From Gammaproteobacteria bacterium (GTDB taxonomy: Bacteria > Pseudomonadota > Gammaproteobacteria > Steroidobacterales > Steroidobacteraceae): a stretch of DNA of 64,000 bases. Location of the stretch: the NCBI GenBank assembly GCA_037441085.1, contig JBBISV010000003.1, positions 695 through 64,694 of the forward strand, read 5' to 3'. Each line of letters begins with the position of its first letter. The stretch's first letter is position 1. The notes below the pieces were generated by a model, which did not search any database, was not told where the DNA came from, and saw only the letters and a program-made list of their open reading frames with translations. Made by a program: the position numbers and the translations under genes. This document shows, in pieces, positions 42,232 through 58,959 of this stretch.

Positions 42232-44250
42232 TCAGAGCAAGGCGAGACCTTCGAAGAGTGCGCGATGCCTCGTGTCCGCCCGATAGAAAACCGGCGGCTG
42301 CCCGATCGGAGCCTCGACGTCGCACTGCGCGCCGCCGGCGTAAGTCCGCCCGCTCCACGCATGCACCCAGTCGACTCCGGCGGGCAGGTAGGTGCTCCAA
42401 CGCGACACGCCCGCATCCAGAACCGGTGCGACCAGGAGATCCGCGCCGAACAGGTAGGAGGTCTGGCCCTCGTAGGCACGCGAATCCTGTTCGAAATGCA
42501 GAAACAGCGGCCGCTGCAAGGGCAGTCCCGTGGCGGCGGCCTCGGTGCACAACTCGGCGAGATACGGAGCCAAATGACGATAGACCCTGGTCATCCGCGC
42601 GAAATGACTGAGCACCCGCGGATCCTGGTCGACTTGCAGATTGTCGCCCGGCCGGTTGCCTTCGTGTGTACGCATCACCGCGGTGAACGCCGCCATCTCG
42701 GCCCACCGCATGATGAGTTCCGCGGTGCGGGTGTTGCCGAATAGGCTGGTGTAGCCGCCGATGTCGCTGTGGTGGTAGGCATTGCCCAACAGGCCGGAGG
42801 ATAGTGCCGCACAGATCACGGTCTGCAGGCCGTCGTGGCGGCTGAAGTCGACCGATTGATCGCCGGCCCACAACAGCGGGCAATGCGCCTGGACGCCGGT
42901 GAAGCCGGCGCGCATGAAGAACAGCGTCTCGCCGGTCCTGCCGCGGCGCGAAACCGCATCCGCATTGACCTTGGCCCAGATCACCGGCCACGCGTTGTGC
43001 GCCAACATGCCGTCGAGGCCGCTCCACAGGCGCACGTCGATCGGCAGATATTCGCCGAAATCGGCCATCCAGCCGGACAGGCCGAAGTCCAGCATGTTGC
43101 GGCCGATCACCCGCTCCTCGAACCATTCGGCCGCCGCGGAGTTCGTGAAGTCGACGATTCCGCAGTCGAATTCGCCGAAATCGAGGAGGTACGGTTCGTC
43201 GCGATCGATGCGCCTGGCGAGATAGCCGGCCGCGGCCGCCTCGGCGTACAGTTCGCCGTCGGTGCAAAGATACGGGTTCACGTAACCGAGGAAGCGGATG
43301 CCGCGCGCGGCCAGCTCCGGGATGCGCCGGTCCAGATCCGGATACCGCTGCCGGTTCCAACTCCAGTTCCAGAACAAGCGCCGGCCGAACGAAGTCTCGC
43401 GGACACCGACCCAGTCTTCGCACCACAGTCCGCTGATCGCGGCCCCGGCTTCGACATATCGTTCCAGCCGCTCGAGGCTGCGCGCGCCGTCCTTCAGGCC
43501 GATGATCGCGCCGGCGCGAACCCAGGCGGGCAATTCGGGTTGGCGGCCGAAGCGTGTCGACAGCGTACCCACGAGATCCACGAACCGATCGGCCCGCCAG
43601 ATCTCGACCTGCCGCGGGAGCGCCCAGACTTCGATCTCGTGAAATTCGCGATGCCTGAAATCGAAGACCGTGTAGGCGGTGCCTTCGACGTGGAGCGCGT
43701 AGTGTTCGGACGAGAGATAGGTCGGCTGGGGATAATTCGTGGTGTAGTAGTCACCGCCGCCGCCGTTGCGACAATCGGCCTCGAACGTGATGCGGGTGGA
43801 TTTGTCGCGTCCGACGCCGGGCTCCGAGGTCCACAGCGGGAACCGGCGTCCCCGCAGGTCGAAATACGACAACTGCTCGCCGCCGCCCCAGATTCTCTCG
43901 CCTTCGCCGGCCGCGATGCGCAGCCAGAAGCGGTTCAGCCCGGCCATGGCCTCCAGGAACACGAGCGCGAGACCGCCGCCGGATTCCTCCACCTCGATGC
44001 GCACCGCCGGCGGATCCGCCGGCGACGCGGCGAGCGCGATGCGCACGCGCGAGTCCGACCGGTCGACGGCCGAGTGCGTCAGCGGAATTCGCGCGATGAG
44101 ATAGTCGTCGATGCGAAAATTGCCGTGGTTCATGCGCACCGACGGCTCGCCGGCCCCAACGTACATGCACGGCTCGGAGCGTCGATGCCGCAGCACGGTC
44201 AAGCCCGCCACGACGACGTCGAATCCATCCGGGTGATCGATTACCGGCAT
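42232..44250 (-). CDS. yihQ: GH31 sulfoquinovosidase (YihQ-like)
   Basis: 672 aa, colinear with my recollection of E. coli YihQ (GEQLSYFDLRGRRFPLWTSEPGVGR, GDYYTT.YPQPT, FGRQPELP, NPY, FFMRAG, RTHEGNRPGDN, PIGQPPVFYR). Catalytic GWMADFGEY (Asp397) and WAGDQ (Asp464) are present. The sulfonate-pocket residues are GRRLFW (Arg291, Trp294; codons about 43369-43380) and HSDIGGY (Tyr500). Confidence 0.85.
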   Translation of the reverse strand: MPVIDHPDGFDVVVAGLTVLRHRRSEPCMYVGAGEPSVRMNHGNFRIDDYLIARIPLTHSAVDRSDSRVRIALAASPADPPAVRIEVEESGGGLALVFLEAMAGLNRFWLRIAAGEGERIWGGGEQLSYFDLRGRRFPLWTSEPGVGRDKSTRITFEADCRNGGGGDYYTTNYPQPTYLSSEHYALHVEGTAYTVFDFRHREFHEIEVWALPRQVEIWRADRFVDLVGTLSTRFGRQPELPAWVRAGAIIGLKDGARSLERLERYVEAGAAISGLWCEDWVGVRETSFGRRLFWNWSWNRQRYPDLDRRIPELAARGIRFLGYVNPYLCTDGELYAEAAAAGYLARRIDRDEPYLLDFGEFDCGIVDFTNSAAAEWFEERVIGRNMLDFGLSGWMADFGEYLPIDVRLWSGLDGMLAHNAWPVIWAKVNADAVSRRGRTGETLFFMRAGFTGVQAHCPLLWAGDQSVDFSRHDGLQTVICAALSSGLLGNAYHHSDIGGYTSLFGNTRTAELIMRWAEMAAFTAVMRTHEGNRPGDNLQVDQDPRVLSHFARMTRVYRHLAPYLAELCTEAAATGLPLQRPLFLHFEQDSRAYEGQTSYLFGADLLVAPVLDAGVSRWSTYLPAGVDWVHAWSGRTYAGGAQCDVEAPIGQPPVFYRADTRHRALFEGLALL

Positions 44251-44287
44251 TTCAATCGGTCCATTCCAAGGACTCCAACAGCGGATA

Positions 44288-44341
44288 GGGAGCGGACGGT
44301 CCGGCGGGGACTCGAGGGGGGGCCGCCGCCCCGCCCGCTCC
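44288..44341 (-). terminator. GC-rich nested hairpin between receptor and sulfoquinovosidase genes (terminator or attenuator candidate)
   Basis: GGGAGCGG (44288-44295) pairs with CCGCTCC(C) (44334-44341), and inner GGCGGGG pairs with CCCCGCC. No U-tract. It lies in the 114-bp gap after the receptor stop. Confidence 0.25.
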
Positions 44342-44364
44342 GTACTCGTCAGGTCAGCGCAAAC

Positions 44365-46791
44365 TCAGTGCCCACCGCCGAACTTCGCATGGAACTCGAT
44401 CCCGTAGTAGCGATTCGCATCCCGCGGAACGAAATACTGGATGCTGCCGCCGGGCCCGCCGGTCTGGGCGAACGAAGCGTAGCTCGTGTTGCTGATGTTC
44501 TTCACGACCGCCGTCAGGGTCATGCGATGGTCGTGGTCGCTGAACGCCAGACTCGCGTTCCACATGCCATAGCCGTGCAGCCGCAGATAGGGATTCTCGC
44601 CTCCGTTGGGGCAGTACGAGGTCGTGCAGGTTGCGAAGTCCGCGTACTGCACGCTCTGGTAGCTGTAGTCGCTCGCGAGCGTCAGGTCGAAAGGCAGACC
44701 CGCCGACCAGGTGTAGTCGGTCCCGACGTTGCCCTTGAACTTCGGGGCGAACGGCAGGGCGCTGCCGCTCGCGGCAACGGCGTGCGGATTCGCCCCGGCC
44801 GGCGCATTGAAGTTCGTCACATGGGCATCCGCGTACGTGACGCCGCCGTTGACGTTCCAGGCGCTCGAGACGTGCGCGGCGCCGGTGAACTCGAAGCCCT
44901 GGCTCACGACCGATCCCGCATTGGTCAGCTGCGTGATCACCACGCCGTTCAGCACCGTCGGGCTGTTGGCCTGGAAGTTCTGGAATTCCTCGCGAAACAC
45001 GTCGGCGTTCAGATAGGCCTCGCCGCCGAGCAACGTCGACTTCAGGCCAAGTTCGTACGCGGTCGAGGTCTCGGGTGCGAGCGGCGCGGACTGCAGGTTG
45101 TTCTGGTTGAAGTAGACGTTGTAGGCGGGACCCTTGTAACCCCTGGCCCAGGTCAGGTACGTCATCTCATCGTGCGTCAGGTCCCACTGCACGCCGGCCT
45201 TGCCGGACAGGTTCGACCGCGACGTCGAACCGCTGCCCTGGAACGGCAGGCAATTCGGCTGAGGGGTGCAATTCGCCGCGATCACGCCGCCGCCGCCGAT
45301 GGGCGAGAGCGTGTAATTGTGGGATTGGGTCAGCTCGTCGTGCGTCTCGCGCAGACCGATGATCCCGCGGAACGTGTCGCTGAAGTGCAGCGTACCCTGG
45401 CCGTAGGCGGCCACGCTGACGGCGGTCGAACCGAAGGTCGCACTGGCCGCGGGCGAGATGTAGGTCGACGCACCCGGCTGGCAGGGCGCGAGCCCGGTCG
45501 CGTCCGGGGCGAGCGTCGTCGAGGTGCAGACCATGTCGTTGCGCTGGAAGTAGCGGTTCTGAACGTTGTGATAGTAGAAGAGTCCGCCGACGTACTCGAA
45601 GAACTGGTCGGCCGGCGAGGCGATGCGCACCTCCTCCGTCAGGGTCGAGGTCGTCTGCGGACCGATGTCGTGCACCATGCCGAACGCGCCGCCGACGTAG
45701 GCGGCCGTCACCGGCAGGTTGTCGCCCTCGCGGATCTCGTTGAACCACCAGTAACGGTAGGCGAGGATGTTGGTCAGCGTGTAGCCGCCATTCGACCAGT
45801 CCGTCTGCAGGGACAAGCCGCGTTCACGCTCGAGGCTCTGCGTCACCAGGCTGTCGTCGACGGTCCGCGTCTTGTCGCCCTGGTAGCTGCTGCCGGCCAG
45901 GATGCTCTGCAGTGCGCCCGCAATCGTCGCCGAGGTGCCGGGCGGCGTGCCGGGTGGCGTGCCGGTCACGAATGCACAGCAGTTGTCATTCGACTCGCGC
46001 CAGTCGCCGATGAACGTGAACTTCAGTGCGTCCGAGGCGTTCCACTTCCAAATCGAGCGGATGCCCCGGTGATCGTAGCCGTTGATCTTGCTGGTGCCGG
46101 AATTGACCGAGGGCTGGTACAGGTTCGTCAGGTTGCCGTCGTACCGCCCCATGAACACCGTGGTGCGGGTGAGGAAATTGTCGGACACCGGCAGATCCAC
46201 AGACGCGCGGGTACGCTGCTCGTTGCCCTCGAAGTAGGCGACATCGACGGCGGCATCGAAGGTTTTGCGCGGCATCACCGAGACGACGTTGATCACGCCG
46301 GCCGATGAATTCTTGCCGAAGAGCGTGCCCTGCGGACCCGGAATGACCTCCATGCGCGCGACGTCGAACAGGTCGCCGAACGCCTGGCCCGAGGTGCCCA
46401 TGACGACGCCGTCGAGCACGTAACCGACGCTCGGTTCCGCGCCCAGCGCGAAGTTGATCGTGCCGACGCCCCGCAGGAACAGGGAGGTGTTGAACGGAAT
46501 GTCGCCTTTGTGGAAGGTGACGCCCGGGACCTGGTTCAGCAAACCTTCCATGTTGATCGCGGCGCTGCGTTCGATTTGTTCGCCGGTGTAAACCGCGACG
46601 GCCGCCGGCACCTCCTGCAGGCGTTCGGCGCGCTTCTGCGCCGTGACGACGATCTCGCCGAGCTGCCCGGTGTCGGCCGCCGGGGTGGCGGCCTGGCCCG
46701 ATTGGGCGATCGCGCCGCCGGATGTCATCAAGCCCGCGCCCGCGATTGCGGCGACGGCGATCGTACGAAGTTTCAAGAGAACCTCAGCCAT
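44365..46791 (-). CDS. TonB-dependent receptor
   Basis: 808 aa from ATG 46791 (MAEVLLKLRTIAVAAIAGAGLMTSGGAIAQ), with plug motifs LGEIVVTAQKRAERLQEVPAAVAVY and MEVIPGPQGTLFGKNSSAG and a long barrel. Confidence 0.9.
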   Translation of the reverse strand: MAEVLLKLRTIAVAAIAGAGLMTSGGAIAQSGQAATPAADTGQLGEIVVTAQKRAERLQEVPAAVAVYTGEQIERSAAINMEGLLNQVPGVTFHKGDIPFNTSLFLRGVGTINFALGAEPSVGYVLDGVVMGTSGQAFGDLFDVARMEVIPGPQGTLFGKNSSAGVINVVSVMPRKTFDAAVDVAYFEGNEQRTRASVDLPVSDNFLTRTTVFMGRYDGNLTNLYQPSVNSGTSKINGYDHRGIRSIWKWNASDALKFTFIGDWRESNDNCCAFVTGTPPGTPPGTSATIAGALQSILAGSSYQGDKTRTVDDSLVTQSLERERGLSLQTDWSNGGYTLTNILAYRYWWFNEIREGDNLPVTAAYVGGAFGMVHDIGPQTTSTLTEEVRIASPADQFFEYVGGLFYYHNVQNRYFQRNDMVCTSTTLAPDATGLAPCQPGASTYISPAASATFGSTAVSVAAYGQGTLHFSDTFRGIIGLRETHDELTQSHNYTLSPIGGGGVIAANCTPQPNCLPFQGSGSTSRSNLSGKAGVQWDLTHDEMTYLTWARGYKGPAYNVYFNQNNLQSAPLAPETSTAYELGLKSTLLGGEAYLNADVFREEFQNFQANSPTVLNGVVITQLTNAGSVVSQGFEFTGAAHVSSAWNVNGGVTYADAHVTNFNAPAGANPHAVAASGSALPFAPKFKGNVGTDYTWSAGLPFDLTLASDYSYQSVQYADFATCTTSYCPNGGENPYLRLHGYGMWNASLAFSDHDHRMTLTAVVKNISNTSYASFAQTGGPGGSIQYFVPRDANRYYGIEFHAKFGGGH

Positions 46792-46910
46792 GACTCCCCC
46801 TTCTGAATTGGCCAATCCGCTGCGCGTTCGTGTAGCTTGCGAACCACACAGGGCTCGTGCTGACGGCATTTCTATGGTGGCGAACATAGCATGGATATTA
46901 TTAGTGATAC

Positions 46911-46928
46911 AACTCTTATATCAGAGTT
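46911..46928. promoter_or_regulatory. inverted repeat AACTCT-TATATC-AGAGTT in the receptor/MFS divergent promoter region (candidate GntR operator)
   Basis: Perfect 6-bp arms inside an AT-rich patch (46891-46935) of an otherwise GC-rich 244-bp intergenic region. It shares TCTTATATC and AGAGTTA with the 55480-55536 region. Confidence 0.35.
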
Positions 46929-47035
46929 AATATGGACGCCGCGCCACCTGCCGACGAACATCAACAAGGAACGGGGCGCGGGGCTGCCGCAGCGGCGATT
47001 TAACCGATGCCGCGACAACTGGAGGGGGAGGGACA

Positions 47036-48370
47036 TTGAACTTCACGCATCTGCCTGACCAGGACAATCGGCCGGACGCGGCCCGCACGGAGGATCCCGT
47101 GGCCGCGTCCGGCCGGAACGGCGCGCCGGGCTGGGTGCGATGGATGTTTCTCGCGCTGATCGTGTCGGCGAACATGATCAATTATGTCGACCGGGAAATC
47201 ATCGCCCTGCTGAAACCGCTGCTCGAAACGCGGTTCCACTGGAGCGACATGGACTACGGTCACGTCGTATCCGCGTTTCAATTATCGGCCGTGGTCGCCT
47301 ACATGGGCGCGGGCTGGTTCATCGACCGCGTCGGGTTGCGCTTCGGTTACCCGATCGCCGTGGCCGCCTGGAGCGCCGTCGCGATGGCGCATTCCGCGGC
47401 GCGTTCCGTGATTGCGTTCGTGGGATTGCGGTCCCTGCTCGGCGCGACGGAGGCGGCCCAGACGCCGGCGGCGGTCAAGACCATCGCCCATTGGTTCTCG
47501 ACGCGCGAACGCGCGCTTGCGCTCGGATTCATGAACACCGGCTCGAACCTCGGCCCGATCGTCACGCCGCTGATCGTGCCGCCGATCGTGCTCGCGTTTG
47601 GATGGCGCGCCGCCTTCCTGATCACCGGCGGACTCGGTTTCGTCTGGCTGATCGCCTGGTTCGCCGCCTATGCCGCCCGGCCGTCCGATCCGCGCGAACG
47701 GTCGTCGACGAGCCCCGCGCCCGCGCTCATCCCGAAGGCCCCGGGGCTCCGATGGACCCGTCTGCTTGCCAGCCGGCGTGTCTGGGCGGTTGCCGGCGCG
47801 AAATTGCTCACCGACCCGGTCTGGTGGTTTTTGTTGTTCTGGCTGCCGGACTTCATGCATCGCCGATACGGCCTGAACCTGCGCACGTTCGGCGTGCCGC
47901 TCGCCGCGATCTACGTGCTCGCCTCGGTCGGCGCGCTCGGCGGCGGCGTGCTGCCCGCCCGCATGCTGGCCCGCGGATCGAGCCTGAATGCGGCGCGCAA
48001 AACGACGCTGCTGATCTGCGCGATCGCGGTGACCGCGCTGCCCCTGGTCTTTCGCGTGGACAGCTACTGGTACGCGGTCCTCATCATCGGGCTGGCGCTC
48101 GCGGCTCACCAGGGATTCTCGACCAACGTGTTCGCGCTCGCGGCGGACATGTTCCCCGACGAGTCGGTCGGAACGGTGGTCGGAATCGGTGCATTGTTCG
48201 GCAACCTCGGCGGACTCGCGATCCTCGAATTCACCGGCTGGCAGGTTTCGCGGTCCGGCGGCTACTGGCCGATCTTCGCGTATTGCGCGGTCGCGTACCT
48301 GGCGGCGCTCGCATTGATCCACGCGTTGGTGCCGCGCATAGTCACGGTGCACGATCAAGCCGCGTCCTGA
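47036..48370 (+). CDS. MFS transporter, anion:cation symporter (ExuT/hexuronate-like) family
   Basis: 444 aa from TTG 47036, preceded by GGAGGGGGAGGG. It has 12 predicted TMs and the family-typical INYVDREIIALLKP and WFSTRERALALGF motifs. Internal starts around 47143 are possible. Confidence 0.85.
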   Translation: MNFTHLPDQDNRPDAARTEDPVAASGRNGAPGWVRWMFLALIVSANMINYVDREIIALLKPLLETRFHWSDMDYGHVVSAFQLSAVVAYMGAGWFIDRVGLRFGYPIAVAAWSAVAMAHSAARSVIAFVGLRSLLGATEAAQTPAAVKTIAHWFSTRERALALGFMNTGSNLGPIVTPLIVPPIVLAFGWRAAFLITGGLGFVWLIAWFAAYAARPSDPRERSSTSPAPALIPKAPGLRWTRLLASRRVWAVAGAKLLTDPVWWFLLFWLPDFMHRRYGLNLRTFGVPLAAIYVLASVGALGGGVLPARMLARGSSLNAARKTTLLICAIAVTALPLVFRVDSYWYAVLIIGLALAAHQGFSTNVFALAADMFPDESVGTVVGIGALFGNLGGLAILEFTGWQVSRSGGYWPIFAYCAVAYLAALALIHALVPRIVTVHDQAAS

Positions 48371-48396
48371 AAGCCCCACCAGAAGGAAGATCACAC

Positions 48397-49530
48397 GTGC
48401 CAGACCATTCGACCAGCCGCGCGTCACGATTCGCGGCTTTCGGCGCGATCGCGGTGCTGTCGGCGGGCGCGGTCGCCGCACCGGCGCAACCGGCGGATCG
48501 ACCGGCGATACCGGAGTCGAACAGCAGTTTCCTCGACGCCGCGGGCACCGCCCACGTGACCAGGGTCGTGCCGATCCCGACGACGATCAGCGCCGAGGCC
48601 CGGGCCTTCCTCGCGCGCAAGCCACCGAACCTCGGCGCCATGACGCTCGCCGAGCGGCGCCGGCAGACCGACTTCTGGCAGGCCGCGCGCGCCGCGCGCT
48701 TCGAGGCGAGGTATCCGGTGCGCGTCAGCGAGCGCACGATGGGCGGGGTGCCGGTGAGGATCGTCTCGCCGTTGCGCATTCCGGCGGAGAATCGCGGCCG
48801 GGTCCTGATCAACCTGCACGGAGGCGGCTTCGACTCCGATTCCGGATCGCTGACCGAAACCGTGCCGATCGCGAACCTCACTCGGACCGAGGTCGTCGCG
48901 GTGCTGTACCGGCTGCAGCCGGAACACCCCTTCCCCGCCCAAATCGACGACGCCATCGCGGTCTACCGTCGGCTGCTCGAGCGCTACCAACCGCGGCACA
49001 TCTGCATCTACGGAACTTCCGCCGGCGCCATTCTGACTCCGCAGGTCGCCGTCCGGCTCCGCCAACTCGGCCTGCCACTGCCCGGCTGCCTCGGAGTCTT
49101 CTCCGGTGTCGGCGATTTCAGCCGGCGGGGCGACTCCCAGTCGATCTTCGGCCTGTTCGGCCTGTCGGGACCGCTCGGACTGCCGCGGGATCCGCCGCGC
49201 GCCGCCGGTGCCGCCGGTGCCGCCGGTGCCGCGCAGCCGGCGCCCGTGAACCTGAAGGATCCTCTGCGTTCGCCGCTGTACGCGGATCTGCACGGCTTCC
49301 CGCCGACGCTGTTCGTCTCGAGCGAGCGGGACATGCTGCTCAGCGGGACGACGATCCTGCACAGGGCGTTCCTCCGCGCCGGAGTCGATGCGCGCCTCGT
49401 CGTATTCGAAGGACTGCCGCACGCGTTCTGGAACCATCCGGGCCTTCCGGAAACGAACGAGGCGGATGAAATCATGGCCGCGTTCTTCGATCGGCACCTC
49501 GGCAACCATTCAGGCTCGACGCGGCCGTGA
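48397..49530 (+). CDS. secreted alpha/beta hydrolase fold-3 esterase/lipase (HSL-like)
   Basis: 377 aa from GTG 48397, with AAGGAAG 7 nt upstream. It has a signal-like N-terminus RFAAFGAIAVLSAGAVAAPAQP, the oxyanion motif LHGGGF, the nucleophile elbow GTSAGA and a C-terminal HAF His region. Confidence 0.8.
   Translation: MPDHSTSRASRFAAFGAIAVLSAGAVAAPAQPADRPAIPESNSSFLDAAGTAHVTRVVPIPTTISAEARAFLARKPPNLGAMTLAERRRQTDFWQAARAARFEARYPVRVSERTMGGVPVRIVSPLRIPAENRGRVLINLHGGGFDSDSGSLTETVPIANLTRTEVVAVLYRLQPEHPFPAQIDDAIAVYRRLLERYQPRHICIYGTSAGAILTPQVAVRLRQLGLPLPGCLGVFSGVGDFSRRGDSQSIFGLFGLSGPLGLPRDPPRAAGAAGAAGAAQPAPVNLKDPLRSPLYADLHGFPPTLFVSSERDMLLSGTTILHRAFLRAGVDARLVVFEGLPHAFWNHPGLPETNEADEIMAAFFDRHLGNHSGSTRP
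49201..49227 (+). repeat. in-frame 9-bp tandem repeat (GCCGCCGGT x3) inside the esterase gene
   Basis: Read directly: gccgccggt gccgccggt gccgccggt followed by gccgc. It encodes AAGAAGAAG in a loop-like region. Confidence 0.9.
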
Positions 49531-50314: not shown

Positions 50315-50318
50315 CCGC

Positions 50319-51122
<804 letters not shown>

Positions 51123-52004
51123 TCAGACCTTGGGGTCGAAACTCTGCGACGGCAGGCCCGCGACGCCGGCGTCGAGCGCGTACAGGCCGCCGCCGGTGCC
51201 GTCCGCGTGCCGCGCGGTGGTGACATAGAGGGTCGCGAGATCCGGCCCGCCGAACGCCGGCATCGTCGGCGAGCGCGCCGGAATCGGATACTCGGCCATC
51301 AGGCCGCCGTCCGGGTCGTAGCGACACACCCGCCCGCCTTCGTAGAGCGCGCTCCAGTAACAGCCCTCGACATCGACCGCGGCGCCGTCGGGCCGGCCGC
51401 GATCGGTCGCGGTCGGCTCCAGCCGCACGAACACACGGCGGTTCGAGATCCCGCCCGTCGTCACGTCGTAGTCGTAACGGTAGACGACGAAGCGCGGCGT
51501 GTCGGCGTGATACAGGCTGCGGCCGTCGGGCGAGAAGGCGAGCCCGTTCGAGGTCATCAAGCCCTCGGCGAGGCGCGTCAGGCCGCGGCGATCGAAGCGA
51601 TACAGACCCGCGCGGCCACCCGCCTTCGGCTCGTCGATCGTACCGACCAACAGCCGGCCGACCGGGTCGACGCGCCCGTCATTGAACCGGCTCACGGCCG
51701 TCTCTTCGGGGTTGCCGGCGAGCATCACATCCTTCTGACCCGACGCGCGCAGGCGCCAGATTCCCGAACGCAGCGCGCCTATGAATCCACCGTCGACGGC
51801 CGGCGCGATGCAGCCGATCGCCTCGTCTAGTTCGTGCGCGATGCAGGTCCCACGCACCGGATCATGGCGGAACCAGCGGCCGGCGGGCACATCGACGAAC
51901 AACAGTTCGCCGGACTCACGCATCCAGACCGGCGACTCGCCGAGCGCGCAGCGGCAATCGAGCACGAGCCGGAACGCGCGCGTTCGCGCCGTCGCCCCGC
52001 TCAT
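51123..52004 (-). CDS. SMP-30/gluconolactonase/LRE family lactonase; candidate 6-deoxy-6-sulfogluconolactonase
   Basis: 293 aa with six-bladed propeller-type repeats (GESPVW, NDGRVDP, SNGLAFSPDG, PDGAAVD). Its start overlaps the epimerase stop (ATGA). Confidence 0.9.
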   Translation of the reverse strand: MSGATARTRAFRLVLDCRCALGESPVWMRESGELLFVDVPAGRWFRHDPVRGTCIAHELDEAIGCIAPAVDGGFIGALRSGIWRLRASGQKDVMLAGNPEETAVSRFNDGRVDPVGRLLVGTIDEPKAGGRAGLYRFDRRGLTRLAEGLMTSNGLAFSPDGRSLYHADTPRFVVYRYDYDVTTGGISNRRVFVRLEPTATDRGRPDGAAVDVEGCYWSALYEGGRVCRYDPDGGLMAEYPIPARSPTMPAFGGPDLATLYVTTARHADGTGGGLYALDAGVAGLPSQSFDPKV

Positions 52005-52891
52005 CGGCCGCGTCCCAGGCCGATCGTCACGGTGCCGCCGATGCGCCCGCCGGGAGGCACGAGCGCCATCCGGCCCGCCGCGAGATCCGGACGATTGATC
52101 GCGTCGGCGATGTGGCTGACCGGCTCGACGCCGAAAAAGTCCCGCCCCGGCGGCGTGAATACCCGCAGTACCGGGAAATCCGCGCTCGCCGTGAGCTCGA
52201 CCTCGAGTCCGCAGGCATCGACGATGCCGGCCGCGCCGGACCAGCCGATGAAGTCATTGTCCAGCGCGGCCGCGCCGATCGGACGGCCGGACGCATGGTC
52301 CCAGGATGTGCCGGGATCGAGTTCGCCGGGAAGATCGTCCGCATCGTTGCACCAGCATCCATCCGCCGCGAAGCGCAGCACTTCGCCGCCATTGCGCGGA
52401 AACAAAGGGTGCAGCCCGAGGCCGAGAGGCACCGCGACCGGTTCCAGATTCCTCGCCTCGAGCGCGACACGCAGCCCCCGCGGCGTGAGCGAGATCCTCT
52501 CGGTCGCATCGAACGCGAACGGCCAGTCGAGCGCCTCCTCGCCCTGAGGCCGATGCGCGAGCCGCAGCTCGCAGCCGTCCTCGCCGGCGCGCTCGACCCG
52601 CCAGGCCCTGCGCCAGCCCACCCCGTGCAAGGGGTGCGCGCCGTGCGGGAAATTGCCGCGCAACACGTGCTCACGCCCCGCCGCGCGAAATCGCCCGCGC
52701 GCGATCCGGTTCGCGTATGGCACGAGCGGATAGCAGGCGGTCCCGCGCACTTCGCATCGCTGCACCGCCTGCTCGGGCGTGGGCCGCAGAATCGCGCGGC
52801 CACGCCATGCAAGATTGAGGAGCGAGCCGCCGATCCAGGGCGCGACCTCCGCGCTCCAATCGCCGCAACCCAGTGCGATGCGCGCCGCCAT
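52001..52891 (-). CDS. aldose 1-epimerase family protein; candidate sulfoquinovose mutarotase
   Basis: 296 aa with family-like blocks PLVPYANRI, HPLHGVGW, LGLHPLF and FGVEPVSH. Confidence 0.85.
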   Translation of the reverse strand: MAARIALGCGDWSAEVAPWIGGSLLNLAWRGRAILRPTPEQAVQRCEVRGTACYPLVPYANRIARGRFRAAGREHVLRGNFPHGAHPLHGVGWRRAWRVERAGEDGCELRLAHRPQGEEALDWPFAFDATERISLTPRGLRVALEARNLEPVAVPLGLGLHPLFPRNGGEVLRFAADGCWCNDADDLPGELDPGTSWDHASGRPIGAAALDNDFIGWSGAAGIVDACGLEVELTASADFPVLRVFTPPGRDFFGVEPVSHIADAINRPDLAAGRMALVPPGGRIGGTVTIGLGRGR

Positions 52892-52897
52892 CGCGGC

Positions 52898-53695
52898 TTA
52901 GTAAGCGGCGACGGGGCCGGCGCCCGCGGCCCGGCCGCGGATCGCGCCGATCCAGTCGCCGGCGCGGCCCGTCAACATCGCCAGGTCCGAGCCGACCGCG
53001 ACCCAGTCGTAGCCGTAACCGAGAAACCGCGCGACCATGTCCGGATTGCCGCCGACGATGCCGATCGGCTTGCCCGCCGCGTGCGCATCCCGCGCCGCCT
53101 TCGCGATCAGCGCCTGTACCTCGGGATGTGCCACCTCCCCGATGCGCCCCATCGCCGCGGACAGATCCCCGGGACCCACGAACAGGGAATCGACGCCCGG
53201 CACCGCCGCGATGCGGGGCAGGCGTTCGATCGCCTCCGGAGTCTCGAGCTGGATCACCACCGCGATCCCCTCGTTCGCGCTGCGCAGGTAGTCCGGGCTG
53301 CGCCCGTAGCGGGAGGCGCGATGGATCGCCGCGACGCCGCGCACGCCGGCCGGCGGATAACGCGTATAAGAGACCGCGGCGGCGGCCTCCTCGGCGTTCT
53401 GCACGAACGGGAACATCACGCTGCGCGCACCCGAGTCGAGCACGCGCTTGACGACGACCTGGTCGTTCCAGGGGATCCGCACGACCGACTCGCACGGCGT
53501 GCCGGCAATCGCCCGCAGCAGTCCGATCGTCTCGGCCGCGTCGATCGGACTGTGCTCCATGTCGACGACCAGAAAATCGAAACCGCAGAAGCCGAGCGCC
53601 TCGGCGACGGCCGGCGCGGCCGACATCAACCAGGTGCCGAGCATCGGCGCCTCGCGCGGACCGGACAGGCCCGTCTTGAATGCATTCGTTTCCAT
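52898..53695 (-). CDS. HpcH/HpaI family class II aldolase; candidate 2-keto-3-deoxy-6-sulfogluconate aldolase
   Basis: 265 aa from ATG 53695, with AGGAG 7 nt upstream. Family blocks are FDFLVVDMEHSPID, VRIPWND and GVDSLFVGPGDLS. The listed 491-aa ORF extends through the dehydratase 3' end and was trimmed. Confidence 0.85.
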   Translation of the reverse strand: METNAFKTGLSGPREAPMLGTWLMSAAPAVAEALGFCGFDFLVVDMEHSPIDAAETIGLLRAIAGTPCESVVRIPWNDQVVVKRVLDSGARSVMFPFVQNAEEAAAAVSYTRYPPAGVRGVAAIHRASRYGRSPDYLRSANEGIAVVIQLETPEAIERLPRIAAVPGVDSLFVGPGDLSAAMGRIGEVAHPEVQALIAKAARDAHAAGKPIGIVGGNPDMVARFLGYGYDWVAVGSDLAMLTGRAGDWIGAIRGRAAGAGPVAAY

Positions 53696-53712
53696 CGAAG
53701 GTCTCCTGAGGG

Positions 53713-55479
53713 TCAATAGATCGGCGGCTCCGGCGTGGGCGCGCGGCCGGCGAGGAAGTCGAAATCGCAGCCCTGCGGCGCCTGCCCGACGTGCGCGCGG
53801 TACAGTGCGGCATAGGAGCGCAGATACGGCGACGCCGGCGCATGCCAGTCGGCGCGGCGGCGGTTCCACTCCTCCTCCCCAACCAAGGCGTCGAGCCGTC
53901 CCGCGGCGACGTCGAGCCGGACGCGGTCGCCGGTGCGAAGCAATGCGAGCGGCCCGCCGATCGCCGCCTCCGGCGCCGCATGCACGATGCAGCACCCGTA
54001 ATGGGTGCCGCTCATGCGCGCATCGGAGATGCGCACCATGTCGCGCACGCCGCGCGCGAGCAGCTTCTTCGGGATCGGCAGGTTCCCCCACTCCGGCATG
54101 CCCGGGGCCCCGACCGGACCGGCATTGCGCAGCACGAGAACCGTGTTCTCGTCGACGTCGAGGTCCGGATCGTCGATCCGGGCCGACAGCGTGGCGTGGT
54201 CGTCGAAAACCAGAGCGCGGCCCTCGTGACGCATCAGCCGCGGGTCCGCGGCGCTCGATTTCAGCACCGCGCCGTCGGGACACAGGTTGCCGCGCAGCAG
54301 CGCGAGCGTCGCGCCGCGCGACAACGGCACGACCGGATCGTCGAGACCGCGAATCACCGCATCGTCCCAGCACTTCGCCTCGCGCAGCGCCTCGCCGAGA
54401 CTGCGGCCCTCGACGGTCAACGCGCCGAGGTCGAGCCGGTCCCCGAGCTTGGCGAGCAGCGCCGGAAGCCCCCCGGCGAAGAAAAAGTCCTCCATCAACC
54501 GGTCACCCGAGGGGAACAGGTTCGCGAGCACCGGGGTGAGCCGTGCGGCGGCCGCCAAATCATCGAGGCCGAGCGCGACGCCCGCGCGCCCCGCCAGCGC
54601 GATCAGGTGGATCGCCGCATTGGTGGAGCCGCCGAGCGCCATGTACGCGACGACGCCGTTGCGGAACGCCGCCGCGGTCGCGATGCGATCGATCGTGAGC
54701 CCTTCGGCAACCATCGCGACGATGCGTTCGCCGCTGGCCGAGGCCATGCGCACATGGGCCGAGTCGACCGCGGGAATGGACGATGCACCGGTCAGACAGA
54801 GCCCCATCGCGTCGATGATCGAGGTCATCGTCGAGGCCGTGCCCATCGTGTTGCAGGTGCCGATCGAGCGCGTCATCCGCGATTCGAGGTCGATCCAGTC
54901 GTCGGCGGTGATGTTGCCGGCCCGCAGCTCGTCCCAGTATTTCTTGGTGTGCGTGCCGGCCCCGGTCTTCACGCCGCGCCATTGGCCGTTCGCCATGGGC
55001 CCCGCGGGACAAAAGATCGTCGGCAGGCCCATGCTGATCGCCCCCATCAGCAAACCGGGCGTGGACTTGTCACAACCGCCGAGCAGCACGGCGCCGTCGA
55101 TCGGATGTGACCGCAGCAACTCCTCGGTCTCCATCGCGAGGAAGTTGCGGTACAGCATCGTCGACGGCTTCACCATGACCTCGCCGACCGAAAGCGCGGG
55201 AAGTTCGACCGGATAGCCGCCCGCGAGCAGCACGCCGCGCTTGACCGCCTCGGCGCGCTGGCGCAGGTGGATGTGGCACGGGCTCATCTCGCTCCACGTG
55301 TTCACGATCGCGATCACCGGCCGGCCGAGGAACTCCTCGCGCCTGAGCCCCATCTGCTGGGTGCGCTGCCGGTGCGCGAATCCGCGCATGTCCGCGCTCT
55401 CATACCAGCGGGCGCTGCGCAACGGGCGGGCGCCGGCGGCGGCGGGGGTGTTTTTTGAATTGCTACTTGAATTTGTCAT
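53713..55479 (-). CDS. IlvD/Edd family sugar-acid dehydratase; candidate 6-deoxy-6-sulfogluconate dehydratase
   Basis: 588 aa from ATG 55479 (MTNSSSNSKN), with family motifs GGCDKSTPGLLMGA, TCNTMGTA and ISDARMSGT. Confidence 0.9.
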   Translation of the reverse strand: MTNSSSNSKNTPAAAGARPLRSARWYESADMRGFAHRQRTQQMGLRREEFLGRPVIAIVNTWSEMSPCHIHLRQRAEAVKRGVLLAGGYPVELPALSVGEVMVKPSTMLYRNFLAMETEELLRSHPIDGAVLLGGCDKSTPGLLMGAISMGLPTIFCPAGPMANGQWRGVKTGAGTHTKKYWDELRAGNITADDWIDLESRMTRSIGTCNTMGTASTMTSIIDAMGLCLTGASSIPAVDSAHVRMASASGERIVAMVAEGLTIDRIATAAAFRNGVVAYMALGGSTNAAIHLIALAGRAGVALGLDDLAAAARLTPVLANLFPSGDRLMEDFFFAGGLPALLAKLGDRLDLGALTVEGRSLGEALREAKCWDDAVIRGLDDPVVPLSRGATLALLRGNLCPDGAVLKSSAADPRLMRHEGRALVFDDHATLSARIDDPDLDVDENTVLVLRNAGPVGAPGMPEWGNLPIPKKLLARGVRDMVRISDARMSGTHYGCCIVHAAPEAAIGGPLALLRTGDRVRLDVAAGRLDALVGEEEWNRRRADWHAPASPYLRSYAALYRAHVGQAPQGCDFDFLAGRAPTPEPPIY

Positions 55480-55536
55480 CTTGATCTGTAATCTTATATC
55501 TAATACAAGAGTTACCAAAAGCCATTTGGAACCTGC
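55480..55536. promoter_or_regulatory. 57-bp AT-rich divergent promoter/operator region between the dehydratase and suyA-like genes
   Basis: cttgatctGTAATCTTatatctaatacAAGAGTTACcaaaagcc contains the imperfect inverted repeat GTAA-TCTT / AAGAGTTAC (55488-55515). It also contains the TCTTATATC and AGAGTTA words shared with 46911-46929. Confidence 0.35.
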
Positions 55537-55827
55537 ATGCCAAACATACCCCAATTGTTGATACACGGCCGCCGCGACAACGTCGGCGTCGTCGTCGTCG
55601 AAGGCCTGACCGCCGGGACCGACATGTTCTGCGTCGTGACCGAGGACAACAGCGAGCTGCGGGCGCGCTGCAACCAGGACGTGCCCATCGGCCACAAGGT
55701 GGCCTTGAAGGACCTGGCGGTGGGCGACACCGTGATCAAGTACGGCGAGGACATCGGTCGCGTCGTCGCCCCCATCGCCAAGGGCGACCATGTCCACACC
55801 CACAATCTGAAAACGAAGCGCTGGTAA
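55537..55827 (+). CDS. suyA: SAF-domain small subunit of a split UxaA-family lyase; (2R)-sulfolactate sulfo-lyase subunit alpha candidate
   Basis: 96 aa corresponding to the N-terminal SAF domain of altronate dehydratase-like proteins ([23 protein letters not shown]). It is encoded separately from the large subunit, as in SuyAB. Confidence 0.75.
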
Positions 55828-55831
55828 AGCC

Positions 55832-57007
55832 ATGAACCTTTCGAAACGCACCATCTGGGGCTATCGCCGCGAAAACGGCCGTGTCGGCGTGCGCAACCAC
55901 GTCGCGATCCTGCCCCTGGACGACATCTCCAACGCCGCCTGCGAGGCCGTCGCCGCGCACATCCAAGGCACCATCGCGCTGCCGCACGCCTATGGGCGGC
56001 TCCAGTTCGGAGAGGACCTGGAACTGCATTTCCGCACCATGATCGGCACCGGCGCCAACCCGAACGTGGCCGCCTGCATCGTGATCGGCATCGAGCCGCA
56101 CTGGACCGAGAAGGTCGTCGCCGGCATCGCGAAAACCGGCAAGCCCGTAGCGGGCTTCTGGATCGAGGGCAACGGCGACATCGCGACCGTCGCCGCCGCG
56201 GCGCGCAAGGCCAAGGAATTCGTGCACCTGGCCTCCGAACAGGTGCGCGTCGAGTGCCCGCTGACCGACTTGTGGGTTGCCGCCAAATGCGGCGAGAGCG
56301 ACACCACGACGGGGCTCGCCTCCTGCCCGACCGTCGGCAACATGTATGACAAGCTCGTGCCGCAAGGCCTGTACGGATGTTTCGGAGAGACCTCCGAGCT
56401 CACCGGGGCTGAGCATCTCGCGGCGGCGCGCGCGGCCACGCCCGAGATCAGCGCGAAGTTCATGAAGACGTGGACGGCCTATCAGAACGATGTCATCGAG
56501 GCGCACAAGACCTCGGACCTCTCGGACAGCCAGCCCACCAAGGGGAACATCGCCGGCGGGCTGACCACGATCGAGGAGAAGGCGCTCGGCAACCTCGAAA
56601 AGATCGGAAAGAAGATCAAGTACATCGACGTGCTGGGACCGGCGGAAGAGCCGGCACGCGGCGCCGGGCTGTATTTCATGGACACCTCGTCCGCGGCGGC
56701 CGAATGTTGCACGCTTCAAGCCGCCGCCGGCTACGTCGTGCACGTGTTCCCGACCGGACAGGGCAACGTGATCGGCAACCCGATCATGCCGGTCATCAAG
56801 CTGAGCGGCAATCCGCGCACGGTGCGACTGATGAGCGAACACATCGACGTCGACGTCTCCGGCATCATCCGGCGCGAGATCACGATCGACCAAGCCGGCG
56901 ACCGCCTGATCGACTGCATCGTGCGCACGGCGAACGGCCGGTTAACGTCCGCCGAGGCGCTCGGCCATCGCGAGTTCGTGATGACCAAGCTGTACCGCAG
57001 CGCCTGA
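55832..57007 (+). CDS. suyB: UxaA-family large subunit; (2R)-sulfolactate sulfo-lyase subunit beta candidate
   Basis: 391 aa, starting 4 nt after the small-subunit stop. It begins with the [19 protein letters not shown] block typical of the UxaA/GarD C-terminal domain and carries Cys-containing motifs (CGESDTT). Confidence 0.8.
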
Positions 57008-57028
57008 GGGGCTGATGGCGGCACGGCC

Positions 57029-58036
57029 ATGATTCGCATGACCGCGGCGCAGGCCGAGGCGCTCGTCGCACGGGCGCTCGCGGCCTGCGGCACCTCGGCG
57101 TCGAACGCCGAGTCCACCGCCCGGGCCCTGGTCGCGGCCGAAATCGACGGCCAGGCGGGTCACGGCCTCTCGCGCGTGCCGGGTTATGCGGCACAGGTGA
57201 AGGCCGGCAAGGTGAACGGCAGCGCCGTTCCGACCGCGCTGCGCAGCCGCCCCGCCAGTCTTCGAATCGACGCGCGCGGCGGATTCGCCTATCCGGCGCT
57301 CGACCTCGCGATCGAACAGCTCCCGGCGATCGCCCGTGAAACCGGCGTCGCGGCGGCCGGCATACACGCGTCGCATCACATCGGTCAGGCCGGCCGCAGC
57401 GTCGAGCGTCTCGCCGATCGCGGACTGGTCGCGCTGATCGTATCCAACACGCCGCGCGCGATGGCATTCCACGGGGGCACCAAGCCCATGATGGGCACCA
57501 ATCCGCTCGCCTTTGCCGCGCCGATCGCCGGCCGCGCGGCGCTGGTGATCGACCTGTCGCTGTCGCTGGTCGCACGCAGCAAGATCGTCGCCGCCCAGAA
57601 GGCGGGCCGCAAGATCCCGACCGACTGGGCGACCGACGCGAACGGCGCGGCCACCGACGATCCGTCGGCCGCGCTCGCCGGCGCGCTGTTGCCCGCGGGC
57701 GGCTCCAAAGGCGCCGCACTCGCGCTGATGGTCGAAGTGCTCTGCGCGGCGCTCGCCGGCGGCCGCTTCGGCTGGGAGGCGAGTTCTTTTCTGGACGATC
57801 GCGGCGATTCGCCCGACGTCGGCCAGATGCTGGTCGCGCTCGATCCGGACGCGTTCGCCGGACCCGGCTACGGCGCGCGCATGGCGGAGCTCGTTGCGGC
57901 GGTCTGCGCCGAGCCCGGCGTGCGCCTTCCCGGCGACCGGCGTCTCGAACAGCGCGCCCGCGCGCGCATCGACGGGTTTGCGATCGCGCCGGAACTGCAC
58001 GCACAGATCGAAGCACTGGCGGAGAGCGGGCGATGA
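57029..58036 (+). CDS. Ldh_2 (malate/L-lactate/sulfolactate dehydrogenase) family oxidoreductase; (R)-sulfolactate dehydrogenase ComC-like candidate
   Basis: 335 aa with family blocks GHGLSRVPGY, HIGQAG, MGTNPLAFAAP and GSKGAALALMVEVL. The specific substrate is not deducible from sequence alone. Confidence 0.85.
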   Translation: MIRMTAAQAEALVARALAACGTSASNAESTARALVAAEIDGQAGHGLSRVPGYAAQVKAGKVNGSAVPTALRSRPASLRIDARGGFAYPALDLAIEQLPAIARETGVAAAGIHASHHIGQAGRSVERLADRGLVALIVSNTPRAMAFHGGTKPMMGTNPLAFAAPIAGRAALVIDLSLSLVARSKIVAAQKAGRKIPTDWATDANGAATDDPSAALAGALLPAGGSKGAALALMVEVLCAALAGGRFGWEASSFLDDRGDSPDVGQMLVALDPDAFAGPGYGARMAELVAAVCAEPGVRLPGDRRLEQRARARIDGFAIAPELHAQIEALAESGR

Positions 58037-58959
58037 GTGAGATCGTGATCAGTGAATTCATGGATCAGGCGGCGATCGACCGCTCGTTCGCGGGCCGGGA
58101 CGTGCTCTATGACCCGAAGCTCGTCGACCAGCCCGAACGGCTGCTCGCCGCCGTCGCGGACTGCCGCGCGCTGATCGTGCGCAACCGCACGCAGGTGCGC
58201 GGCGCGCTGCTCGCGCAGGCCGCCCGTCTGCAAGTCGTCGGTCGGCTGGGCGTCGGCCTCGACAATATCGACGTCGAAGCCTGCGCGGCGCGCGCGATCA
58301 AGGTGTATCCCGCGACCGGCGCGAACGATCTCGCGGTCGCCGAGTACGTCGTGACCGCGGCGCTGATGTTGCTCCGGCGCGCCTGGTTCGCGACCGAGCG
58401 CGTGGCCGCCGGCACCTGGCCGCGAATGGACCTGATCGGCCGCGAAGGCGCAGGCAAGCGGCTCGGGCTGGTCGGCTTCGGCGCGATCGCCCGACTGACC
58501 GCGCACAAGGCCGCGGCGCTCGACTTCCAGGTGGCGGCATACGATCCCTTCCTGCCCGCGGAACACGCCGCCTGGGCCGGCGTCGAGCGCCTCGCGCTCG
58601 AGGAATTGCTCGGATCCTGCGACGTGATCAGCCTGCATACCCCGCTGACCGCGCAAACGCGGCGCATGATCGATGCCGCGGCGCTCGCGCGGATGAAACC
58701 GACCGCGATCCTGATCAATGCCGCGCGCGGCGGCATCGTCGATGAAGCCGCGCTGATTGCGGCGTTGAAGTCGGGCGGACTCGCCGGCGCGGCGCTCGAC
58801 GTGTTCGAGAACGAGCCGCTCGACGCGGCGACGGGGGCCGCATTTGGCGGCCTGCCGAACTTGATCCTGACGCCCCACATCGCCGGCGTCACCGAGGAAT
58901 CCAACGTCCGGGTCAGCGACGTGACGGCGCGCGCGGTGCGCGCCGCGCTCGACGGCTAG
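58033..58959 (+). CDS. D-isomer-specific 2-hydroxyacid dehydrogenase family protein (SerA-like, short form)
   Basis: 308 aa with the NAD motif GLVGFGAIARLTA and the catalytic region LINAARGGIVDE ... LTPHIAG. Its start overlaps the upstream stop (ATGA). Confidence 0.85.
   Translation: MSEIVISEFMDQAAIDRSFAGRDVLYDPKLVDQPERLLAAVADCRALIVRNRTQVRGALLAQAARLQVVGRLGVGLDNIDVEACAARAIKVYPATGANDLAVAEYVVTAALMLLRRAWFATERVAAGTWPRMDLIGREGAGKRLGLVGFGAIARLTAHKAAALDFQVAAYDPFLPAEHAAWAGVERLALEELLGSCDVISLHTPLTAQTRRMIDAAALARMKPTAILINAARGGIVDEAALIAALKSGGLAGAALDVFENEPLDAATGAAFGGLPNLILTPHIAGVTEESNVRVSDVTARAVRAALDG

Follow-up and report, generated by a model that had tools for sequence, protein, structure and literature searches.

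A probable single regulon for sulfoquinovose acquisition, sulfo-Entner-Doudoroff catabolism and desulfonation in a Steroidobacteraceae genome

We analyze a 64,000-nucleotide stretch of contig JBBISV010000003.1 from a gammaproteobacterium of the Steroidobacteraceae (hereafter, the window), in which the genes between 40.6 and 59.0 kb probably join the acquisition of sulfoquinovose (SQ), its breakdown by the sulfo-Entner-Doudoroff (sulfo-ED) pathway and the desulfonation of the product. Our main explanation of this arrangement is that the region is one regulon of four transcription units, and it is probably a GntR/HutC-family regulator that controls them through a shared palindromic operator.

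As currently modelled, sulfoglycolytic bacteria retain half of the SQ carbon and excrete a three-carbon (C3) sulfonate, which others desulfonate. The reason for this “division of labour” has been posed as an open question (PMC7491151), and a 2026 review describes complete SQ catabolism by one organism as undemonstrated outside the oxygenase routes. The window and its relatives appear to show both tiers fused under one operator, and a cultured carrier of the same gene layout, Caulobacter sp. KR2-114, makes the question directly testable. If the reading is true, sulfur-cycle models and gene surveys that treat the degradation of SQ and of sulfolactate as the work of separate guilds need adjusting.

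In the proposed pathway, a lipase-type esterase would deacylate sulfolipid outside the cell, and sulfoquinovosyl glycerol would enter through a TonB-dependent receptor (TBDR) in the outer membrane and a major facilitator superfamily (MFS) transporter in the inner membrane. A cytoplasmic sulfoquinovosidase would split it into SQ and glycerol, the latter being converted to dihydroxyacetone phosphate via GlpD and a kinase that we did not find in the window. A mutarotase, a dehydrogenase, a lactonase, a dehydratase and an aldolase would take SQ to pyruvate and (S)-sulfolactaldehyde (SLA), which a dehydrogenase, presumably encoded outside the window, would oxidize to (S)-sulfolactate. An SlcC-like enzyme would then form sulfopyruvate, a ComC-like enzyme of the Ldh_2 family would convert this to (R)-sulfolactate, and SuyAB would release a second pyruvate and sulfite, for which a sink should exist elsewhere in the genome.

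Enzymes of the locus

Gene order was taken from a third-position-GC gene map cross-checked against the list of open reading frames, and families were assigned with Pfam and NCBIfam. GC content is evenly high along the window (63-72%), and within the operons of the 40.6-59.0 kb region neighbouring genes are a few bases apart or overlap by 4 bp. For comparison with other genomes, we surveyed the 80 genome loci with the closest homologues of the large sulfo-lyase subunit SuyB (75-97% identical), which are the best 80 of at least about 594 confirmed matches and hence nearest relatives rather than a random sample; onto these loci we mapped the proteins of the window and gene clusters built de novo. 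The survey covered 10-kb flanks, and because of contig ends its counts of coupled loci are lower bounds. All genes that an earlier note had read from this stretch are in place, and every family it gave them is borne out by Pfam and NCBIfam; its inventory overlooked two genes, those of the esterase (48397-49530) and of GlpD (40655-42160).

The glycoside hydrolase family 31 (GH31) protein, encoded at 42232-44250 on the minus strand, scores 915 bits on the YihQ equivalog model NF007746 (cutoff 553) versus 177 bits on the alpha-xylosidase model (cutoff 606). Its top PDB matches are sulfoquinovosidases, namely that of Agrobacterium tumefaciens (5OHS/5OHY, E ~1e-292), further enzymes of the YihQ type and E. 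coli YihQ (E 4e-211), and the xylosidases and glucosidases, with which the earlier note had allowed that it might group, rank behind them at E 1e-42 or worse. The motifs GRRLFW (aa 289-294), HSDIGGY (aa 494-500), WMADFGEY and WAGDQSVDF align column for column with the Agrobacterium enzyme, so that the catalytic Asp pair and sulfonate-pocket residues noticed earlier are conserved in a proper alignment. In E. coli YihQ, the residues reported by Speciale et al. (2016) are R301, W304 and Y508 for the sulfonate triad and D405 and D472 for the catalytic aspartates. The protein has no signal peptide. On these comparisons, it is clearly a YihQ-type sulfoquinovosidase.

The minus-strand operon contains, as the earlier note had proposed, a short-chain dehydrogenase/reductase (SDR; 50319-51083), an SMP-30/SGL lactonase (51123-52004), an aldose 1-epimerase (52001-52891), an HpcH/HpaI class II aldolase (52898-53665) and an IlvD/Edd dehydratase (53713-55479). 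The best PDB match of the SDR is 9GWU, “Sulfoquinovose 1-dehydrogenase” of Pseudomonas putida (E 5e-89, 60% identity). In that enzyme, PpSQDH, Ser147 and Tyr160 contact the C1-OH of the substrate, Asp99 the C2-OH, and Arg101 and Gln198 the C3-OH, and the sulfonate is held by a salt bridge to Arg152 and through water by Arg154 (PMC12133307). The SDR keeps the equivalents of Ser147, Arg152, Arg154, Tyr160, Lys164, Asp99, Arg101 and Gln198, and with them the catalytic tetrad and the sulfonate pocket; among solved structures it is nearest to an SQ 1-dehydrogenase, with all SQ and sulfonate contacts kept, and this comparison gave no sign of the pentose or 6-deoxyhexose specificity that the earlier note had named as refuting.

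The comparison with rhizobial sulfo-ED enzymes that the earlier note had called for gave a consistent picture. A cluster on plasmid pWSM4643_1 of Rhizobium sp. WSM4643 comprises an ABC transporter, an “L-arabinonate dehydratase”, an aldolase, an SMP-30 lactonase, an SDR, an alpha-glucosidase, TauE and an NAD-dependent succinate-semialdehyde dehydrogenase, a composition that matches the sulfo-ED operon of R. leguminosarum SRDI565 as described. Gene by gene, the window proteins are 53-73% identical to those of this cluster (dehydratase 73%, aldolase 72%, SDR 70%, GH31 62%, lactonase 53%). The lactonase, a putative 6-deoxy-6-sulfogluconolactonase, matches Pfam SGL (PF08450) at E 1e-76; the aldolase, which would act on 2-keto-3-deoxy-6-sulfogluconate (KDSG), falls into HpcH_HpaI (PF03328), the family of the KDSG aldolase of Pseudomonas putida (PMC12421959); and the predicted 6-deoxy-6-sulfogluconate dehydratase carries ILVD_EDD_N and C (PF00920/PF24877). 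Taken together, these matches support the assignment of SDR, lactonase, dehydratase and aldolase as sulfo-ED enzymes at the level of family and orthologue. The epimerase (Pfam Aldose_epim) is a candidate SQ mutarotase: it keeps the same operon position in L001, L004, L006, L011, L012, L017 and L085, and its top PDB match is the E. coli aldose epimerase, with no SQ mutarotase structure among the PDB matches.

(2R)-Sulfolactate sulfo-lyase, SuyAB, depends on Fe(II) and splits (R)-sulfolactate into pyruvate and sulfite. The divergent plus-strand operon begins with a split pair of this type, a 96-aa SAF-like small subunit (SuyA, 55537-55827) and a 391-aa large subunit with the UxaA C-terminal domains GD_AH_second and GD_AH_C (SuyB, 55832-57007), their genes 4 bp apart. 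SuyA is 67-70% identical to the small subunits of Paracoccus suy clusters and 48% identical to that of Cupriavidus pinatubonensis. SuyB is 75% identical to a Paracoccus seriniphilus gene product from a cluster of GntR, suyAB, a tripartite tricarboxylate transporter (TTT), hydroxyacid dehydrogenase, Ldh and exporter genes, 74% to one from a GntR-suyA-suyB-“sulfate exporter” (suyZ) cluster on pTAV3 of Paracoccus versutus, and 68% to one encoded in C. pinatubonensis directly after hpsN, hpsO, an MFS gene and an hpsP-like gene. The GntR-suyA-suyB-exporter arrangement is reportedly the one described for the purified Paracoccus pantotrophus enzyme. Next comes a Rhodococcus pair at 59.5%, and then there is a sharp break, as no other split UxaA protein exceeds 41% identity.

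Because a heteromeric L-fuconate dehydratase of the UxaA family is mentioned by Watanabe et al. (PMC6336799), a split UxaA protein is not automatically SuyAB; the same study (Watanabe 2019, PMC6336799) takes as its criterion for SuyAB that the four Cys conserved in other UxaA/GarD members are missing. The identities to SuyB proteins of sulfonate clusters nevertheless support placing the window's pair inside the SuyAB group. Among the PDB matches there was no SuyAB structure, E. coli GarD (E 6e-33) being the only one. The JGI product name “(2R)-sulfolactate sulfo-lyase subunit beta”, which hundreds of homologues bear, was taken as automatic annotation and was not used as evidence.

The operon continues with an Ldh_2 dehydrogenase (PF02615, 57029-58036) and a D-2-hydroxyacid dehydrogenase (2-Hacid_dh and 2-Hacid_dh_C, PF00389/PF02826, 58033-58959). 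These are exactly the families of ComC (PF02615) and SlcC (PF00389/PF02826) of Chromohalobacter salexigens (PMC12421959 Table S2), in agreement with the earlier note, and the two proteins are 55% and 62% identical, respectively, to their homologues in the P. seriniphilus suy cluster; Ldh_2 also co-occurs with SuyB in many of the surveyed loci. CH2SO3 takes priority over COOH, which gives (S)-sulfolactate the D configuration; a D-2-hydroxyacid dehydrogenase, whose best NCBIfam match is phosphoglycerate dehydrogenase (below cutoff), is therefore sensible as the (S)-sulfolactate dehydrogenase. We infer that the SlcC-like and ComC-like enzymes would act on sulfolactate with opposite stereospecificity and in opposite directions.

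Genes for acquisition complete the locus. The TBDR (Plug and TonB_dep_Rec_b-barrel), which occupies the same position in L004 and in the Caulobacter locus, was called at 44365-46887 on the minus strand, and its true start is probably the ATG at 46791, ahead of the signal peptide; it is a candidate receptor for the uptake of sulfoquinovosyl glycerol or lyso-sulfolipid. On the plus strand, the MFS transporter (MFS_1, anion:cation symporter type, 47036-48370) reaches 206 bits on the NCBIfam D-galactonate transporter subfamily, below cutoff. Its homologues adjoin GH31 in L012 and L016 and stand at the syntenic place in L001, which makes it a candidate inner-membrane importer of SQ or SQ-glycerol. 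It is followed by a secreted family-IV esterase/lipase of the hormone-sensitive-lipase type (Abhydrolase_3, 48397-49530), with a signal-peptide-like N-terminus, HGGG and GTSAG motifs, and 414 bits on NF058649, the GTSAG-motif subfamily of hormone-sensitive lipases (cutoff 380); this candidate sulfolipid deacylase is also found in L001, at 93% identity.

GlpD (DAO and DAO_C, 40655-42160, minus strand) lies directly downstream of GH31, closes the TBDR-GH31-GlpD unit and would process the glycerol freed from sulfoquinovosyl glycerol. We considered whether it might instead be a dehydrogenase of 2,3-dihydroxypropane-1-sulfonate (DHPS) or sulfolactate, homologues being found next to suy cassettes, and rejected this, as the protein passes the NCBIfam equivalog for aerobic glycerol-3-phosphate dehydrogenase (702 bits, cutoff 360) and a glycerol kinase comes after its homologue in relatives.

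A shared operator and recurrence of the layout

A 12-bp perfect palindrome, TCTTATATAAGA, is conserved upstream of suyA and was found there in 55 of the 80 loci. With up to two mismatches allowed, it occurs exactly twice in the window versus 0.06 times expected, and no shuffle reached two. Each of the two divergent promoter regions holds one copy: TCTTATATCAGA lies at 46914-46925 between the TBDR and MFS genes, and TCTAATACAAGA at 55499-55510 between those of IlvD and SuyA, in a gap that measures exactly 57 bp, as the earlier note had counted. That note's placement of a regulator, an anion-type MFS transporter and a TBDR between the enzyme blocks also stands, the regulator (GntR helix-turn-helix and UTRA domains) being encoded at 49595-50314 on the plus strand. 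Sigma-70 scans of both intergenic regions returned one weak promoter-like site only, at 46897-46924, which overlaps the operator.

The palindrome is found at the place equivalent to the IlvD/SuyA gap in L004, L006, L011, L012, L014, L016, L017 and L085. A second copy occupies the GH31/GntR or TBDR/GntR gap in L004, L005, L012, L016, L017 and L085, and stands ahead of the MFS gene in L001. In most suy loci, Paracoccus included, a GntR homologue is divergent from suyA, and we infer that the GntR/HutC regulator is the protein that binds the palindrome.

Sulfo-ED genes stand beside the suy cassette in nine of the 80 loci. Eight of them (L001, L004, L005, L006, L011, L012, L016 and L017), from Steroidobacteraceae-like and other gammaproteobacterial metagenome-assembled genomes (MAGs) and from Caulobacteraceae, have the same divergent sulfo-ED/suy layout, and L057, a Rhodobacteraceae MAG, has the same genes in a different arrangement. 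The closest genome among the matches listed is the MAG “Proteobacteria bacterium BP6.bin97”, which is syntenic with 76-98% amino acid identity (90-98% for most genes). L014, a short contig, contains the same IlvD/suyA junction. The layout is also that of the cultured Caulobacter sp. KR2-114 (L085, GCA_049446115.1), where the order is TBDR, GntR, PhyH, SDR, lactonase, epimerase, aldolase, dehydratase, SuyA, SuyB, Ldh_2, 2-Hacid_dh and a SuyZ-type exporter. The neighbourhood survey for yihQ-like, IlvD/Edd and suyAB genes that had been suggested thus finds the layout in at least nine genomes besides the window.

Some variations on this theme were seen along the way. The PhyH-family gene (Fe/2-oxoglutarate dioxygenase) of L085, at 3336-4154, is inserted between GntR and the SQ dehydrogenase. 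Two Steroidobacteraceae MAGs, L002 and L003, have the order GlpD< GntR> SMP30< SuyA> SuyB> SuyZ>, with a lone SMP-30 lactonase gene between GntR and suyA and the operator preceding suyA; the lactonase may be either a remnant of a sulfo-ED operon or in use for another purpose. On plasmid p420573 of P. seriniphilus (L083, 19.4-38.7 kb), an IlvD/Edd gene whose product is 72% identical to the window's stands beside an enolase-superfamily gene and a LacI regulator. It is not accompanied by genes for an SDR, a lactonase or an aldolase; hpsN-like DHPS genes and a complete suyAB-TTT-SlcC-ComC-SuyZ cluster lie a few kb away.

A second type of front end was found in 11 of the 80 loci (L009, L013, L015, L018, L023, L029, L030, L046, L049, L055 and L070, around 1-9000 in each), where the neighbours of the suy cassette are genes for a PfkB kinase, a DeoC/LacD aldolase and a protein of 466 aa that weakly matches Fucose_iso_C. 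This set looks like a front end of the sulfo-Embden-Meyerhof-Parnas (sulfo-EMP) type, possibly with an unusual isomerase. Four of the 11 loci have a YihQ-like GH31, seven have GlpD or GlpD-GlpK, and some have a tripartite ATP-independent periplasmic (TRAP) transporter; the palindrome also precedes the kinase operon and the gene of the TRAP binding protein. Cultured carriers of this variant include Iodidimonas nitroreducens Q-1, Nitratireductor sp. XY-223 and Aquibium sp. A9E412.

Sulfoglycolysis genes thus adjoin the cassette in at least 20 of the 80 SuyB loci (nine sulfo-ED and 11 sulfo-EMP-like). It is conceivable, and we advance it tentatively, that complete mineralization of SQ by single organisms via sulfoglycolysis is common in soil and freshwater Proteobacteria (Steroidobacteraceae-like bacteria, Caulobacteraceae, Rhizobiales and Rhodobacteraceae), and not rare or absent. 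A portable cassette of GntR, SuyAB and the ComC-like and SlcC-like dehydrogenases with TCTTATATAAGA would then have been joined to at least two front ends, and the operator would have spread to uptake and glycosidase operons, making a single regulon that reaches from sulfolipid to sulfite.

The missing aldehyde dehydrogenase and alternative readings

Several points weigh against the single-regulon reading. All of the evidence is computational and based on sequence. The purified SuyAB of P. pantotrophus and SlcC/ComC of C. salexigens are linked to the window's proteins via orthologues in close relatives and gene context, and the same holds for the dehydratase, lactonase and aldolase of Pseudomonas putida SQ1. 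The dehydratase scores 876 bits on the NCBIfam model for L-arabinonate dehydratase, 6 below the cutoff of 882, and P. seriniphilus has its 72%-identical copy without other sulfo-ED genes. Ldh_2 reaches 189 bits on NF040650, the NCBIfam equivalog for L-sulfolactate dehydrogenase (cutoff 500). Its best PDB match is a piperideine-2-carboxylate reductase, with ComC of M. jannaschii (2X06) only seventh; we considered reading a substrate from that top match and concluded that it says nothing on the substrate. Finally, neither a SuyZ/TauE exporter nor a sulfite dehydrogenase was found in the window, and no aldehyde dehydrogenase is present in its 64 kb, as judged by Pfam Aldedh on all called genes and by tblastn.

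The last of these points concerns the connection between the two halves of the pathway, which are unlinked within the window because no aldehyde dehydrogenase is encoded there. The earlier note had described the sulfo-ED enzyme set as full, which does not hold for the SLA dehydrogenase. Its statement that no TauE-like sulfolactate exporter is present agrees with our tblastn search of the whole window, in which Rhizobium TauE gave noise only (E >= 0.7). Its inference that the locus takes SQ glycosides to pyruvate and sulfite in one organism stands as far as the enzyme assignments go, and for the step from SLA to sulfolactate it needs a gene elsewhere.

In four relatives (L006, L012, L016 and L017), the suy operon ends with an additional gene, for a GabD-type aldehyde dehydrogenase (Pfam Aldedh), so that the complete pathway is predicted to lie in one operon pair. 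The product of this gene is 57% identical to the SLA dehydrogenase candidate of the Rhizobium cluster and scores 627 bits to PDB 8C54, deposited as “succinate semialdehyde dehydrogenase”, which we take to be the SLA dehydrogenase of R. leguminosarum. No such gene is found in the clusters of the window, the near-identical L001 or Caulobacter sp. KR2-114. Directly after the suy operon of the window, at the position of the relatives' GabD-type gene, the minus strand encodes a 182-aa protein without a Pfam match (58989-59537). Paracoccus wurundjeri has no GabD/SlaB homologue at all, yet it forms sulfolactate, desulfonates fully and releases sulfite (PMC12421959). That a GabD-type gene is missing in three cases, the window, Caulobacter sp. 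KR2-114 and P. wurundjeri, could also mean that a novel SLA-oxidizing enzyme is at work.

The rival explanation that survives best is that of two neighbouring systems that work independently, namely a sulfo-ED pathway that exports or diverts its C3 sulfonate and a SuyAB-ComC-SlcC module that scavenges sulfolactate, cysteate or DHPS from outside the cell. The window does lack the connecting SLA dehydrogenase, and most of the 80 loci have a GntR-suy cassette without sulfoglycolysis genes within 10 kb, often together with HpsN, TRAP/TTT transporters and SuyZ. We nevertheless consider this explanation unlikely: the same operator precedes the sulfoquinovosidase and transport units and lies between the sulfo-ED and suy operons; the adjacency is repeated in at least nine other genomes of several lineages; the locus has neither a TRAP/TTT importer of C3 sulfonates nor a sulfolactate exporter; and a racemizing dehydrogenase pair is what an input of (S)-sulfolactate from sulfoglycolysis would require.

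A second possibility, to which we give somewhat less credence, is that the pathway is incomplete, the SLA dehydrogenase having been lost and SLA being reduced or excreted without desulfonation of SQ carbon. This would fit with the zero Aldedh matches in the window and with a suy operon that stops at the 2-hydroxyacid dehydrogenase here and in L001, whereas L006, L012, L016 and L017 go on to the GabD-type gene. Decay of this kind sits poorly, however, with the state of the remaining genes, all of them intact, strongly conserved and closely spaced, with 4-bp overlaps. The Caulobacter sp. KR2-114 cluster likewise has no SLA dehydrogenase gene, P. wurundjeri manages sulfolactate formation and full desulfonation with no GabD/SlaB homologue (PMC12421959), and genes for GabD-type dehydrogenases are widespread as housekeeping genes.

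A non-phosphorylative pentose or deoxyhexose pathway (Dahms/Weimberg-like), with GH31 as an alpha-xylosidase and the split UxaA pair as a sugar-acid dehydratase (cf. the L-fuconate dehydratase of Paraburkholderia mimosarum), is very improbable: heteromeric UxaA-family sugar-acid dehydratases do exist (PMC6336799), and the dehydratase's near-cutoff score and the SDR's best NCBIfam match (D-xylose dehydrogenase, below its cutoff) point this way, but GH31 is clearly of the YihQ type, the SDR keeps the sulfonate-binding arginines of PpSQDH, and SuyB is 68-75% identical to SuyB of sulfonate clusters versus at most 41% for other split UxaA proteins. We rejected an assignment to pentose metabolism from the L-arabinonate dehydratase score itself; because the 73%-identical dehydratase of the Rhizobium sulfo-ED-type cluster bears the same label, the label is uninformative and no evidence against a sulfogluconate dehydratase.

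Precedents and neighbouring genes

The enzyme families and both half-pathways are already known. The closest precedent for the single regulon proposed here is the tandem sulfofucose-ED/SuyAB pathway of P. wurundjeri strain Merri, which was shown experimentally (mBio 2025, PMC12421959). There, too, one organism couples an SDR, an SMP-30 lactonase, a dehydratase and an HpcH aldolase to GntR-SuyA-SuyB-SlcC-ComC, sulfite is released, and the cluster has no SLA dehydrogenase (PMC12421959). It differs in its substrate, sulfofucose, in an enzyme of the enolase superfamily (PF13378/PF02746) as dehydratase instead of IlvD/Edd, in uptake by an ABC transporter and in having no glycosidase. Beyond what that cluster holds, the window has a YihQ sulfoquinovosidase, a TonB receptor, an MFS transporter, a lipase-type esterase and GlpD.

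With the canonical sulfo-ED clusters of Pseudomonas putida SQ1 and R. leguminosarum SRDI565, the window shares the sulfoquinovosidase, SQ dehydrogenase, lactonase, IlvD/Edd dehydratase and HpcH aldolase, and with Pseudomonas putida also the mutarotase. Those clusters end with an SLA dehydrogenase and TauE and excrete sulfolactate, whereas the window has SuyAB, ComC-like and SlcC-like proteins instead. The same four protein families serve sulfolactate degradation in C. salexigens, P. pantotrophus and C. pinatubonensis, and a GntR-type regulator accompanies suyAB in the Paracoccus clusters as it does here. These organisms, which do not degrade SQ, live on sulfolactate, cysteate or DHPS taken up from outside; in contrast, the cassette of the window appears tied to the breakdown of SQ, and neither a C3-sulfonate importer nor SuyZ accompanies it.

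“Extended” sulfo-transaldolase (sulfo-TAL) clusters that contain SuyAB have been predicted in Thermotogae and Chloroflexi (PMC9594981). They likewise combine a sulfoglycolytic cluster with SuyAB and would use all six carbons of SQ, but they have an isomerase and a transaldolase as the front end, belong to other phyla and are a bioinformatic prediction only (PMC9594981). In the locus described here, the cleavage that releases sulfite would be an elimination on the C3 product, after sulfoglycolysis. The earlier note's remark that it knew of no characterized locus with this coupling holds for SQ as far as the searchable open-access literature goes, in which no locus with sulfo-ED and SuyAB/SlcC/ComC genes for SQ is described; the concept itself has the two precedents above (PMC12421959, PMC9594981).

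Other parts of the window hold gene sets of separate interest. Just upstream of the SQ locus, at 34476-40051, an ABC transporter (a fused permease and OpuAC-type binding domain) and its ATPase adjoin a sulfatase (36822-38471) and a sulfotransferase with tetratricopeptide repeats (38636-40051); these genes may form another organosulfur cluster, perhaps of the choline-sulfate type. At 10811-17074, genes for a protein with a PEP-utilizer mobile domain and for a PPDK_N protein come first, and then those for a biotin carboxyl carrier, a biotin carboxylase and a PYC_OADA/HMGL-like carboxyltransferase, which reads as a phosphorylation-plus-carboxylation gene set. The stretch at 23936-27100 encodes a 1054-aa P-type ATPase whose C-terminal domain is of the PAP2 (phosphatase) family; MacB-type ABC, HlyD and outer-membrane efflux genes line up with it.

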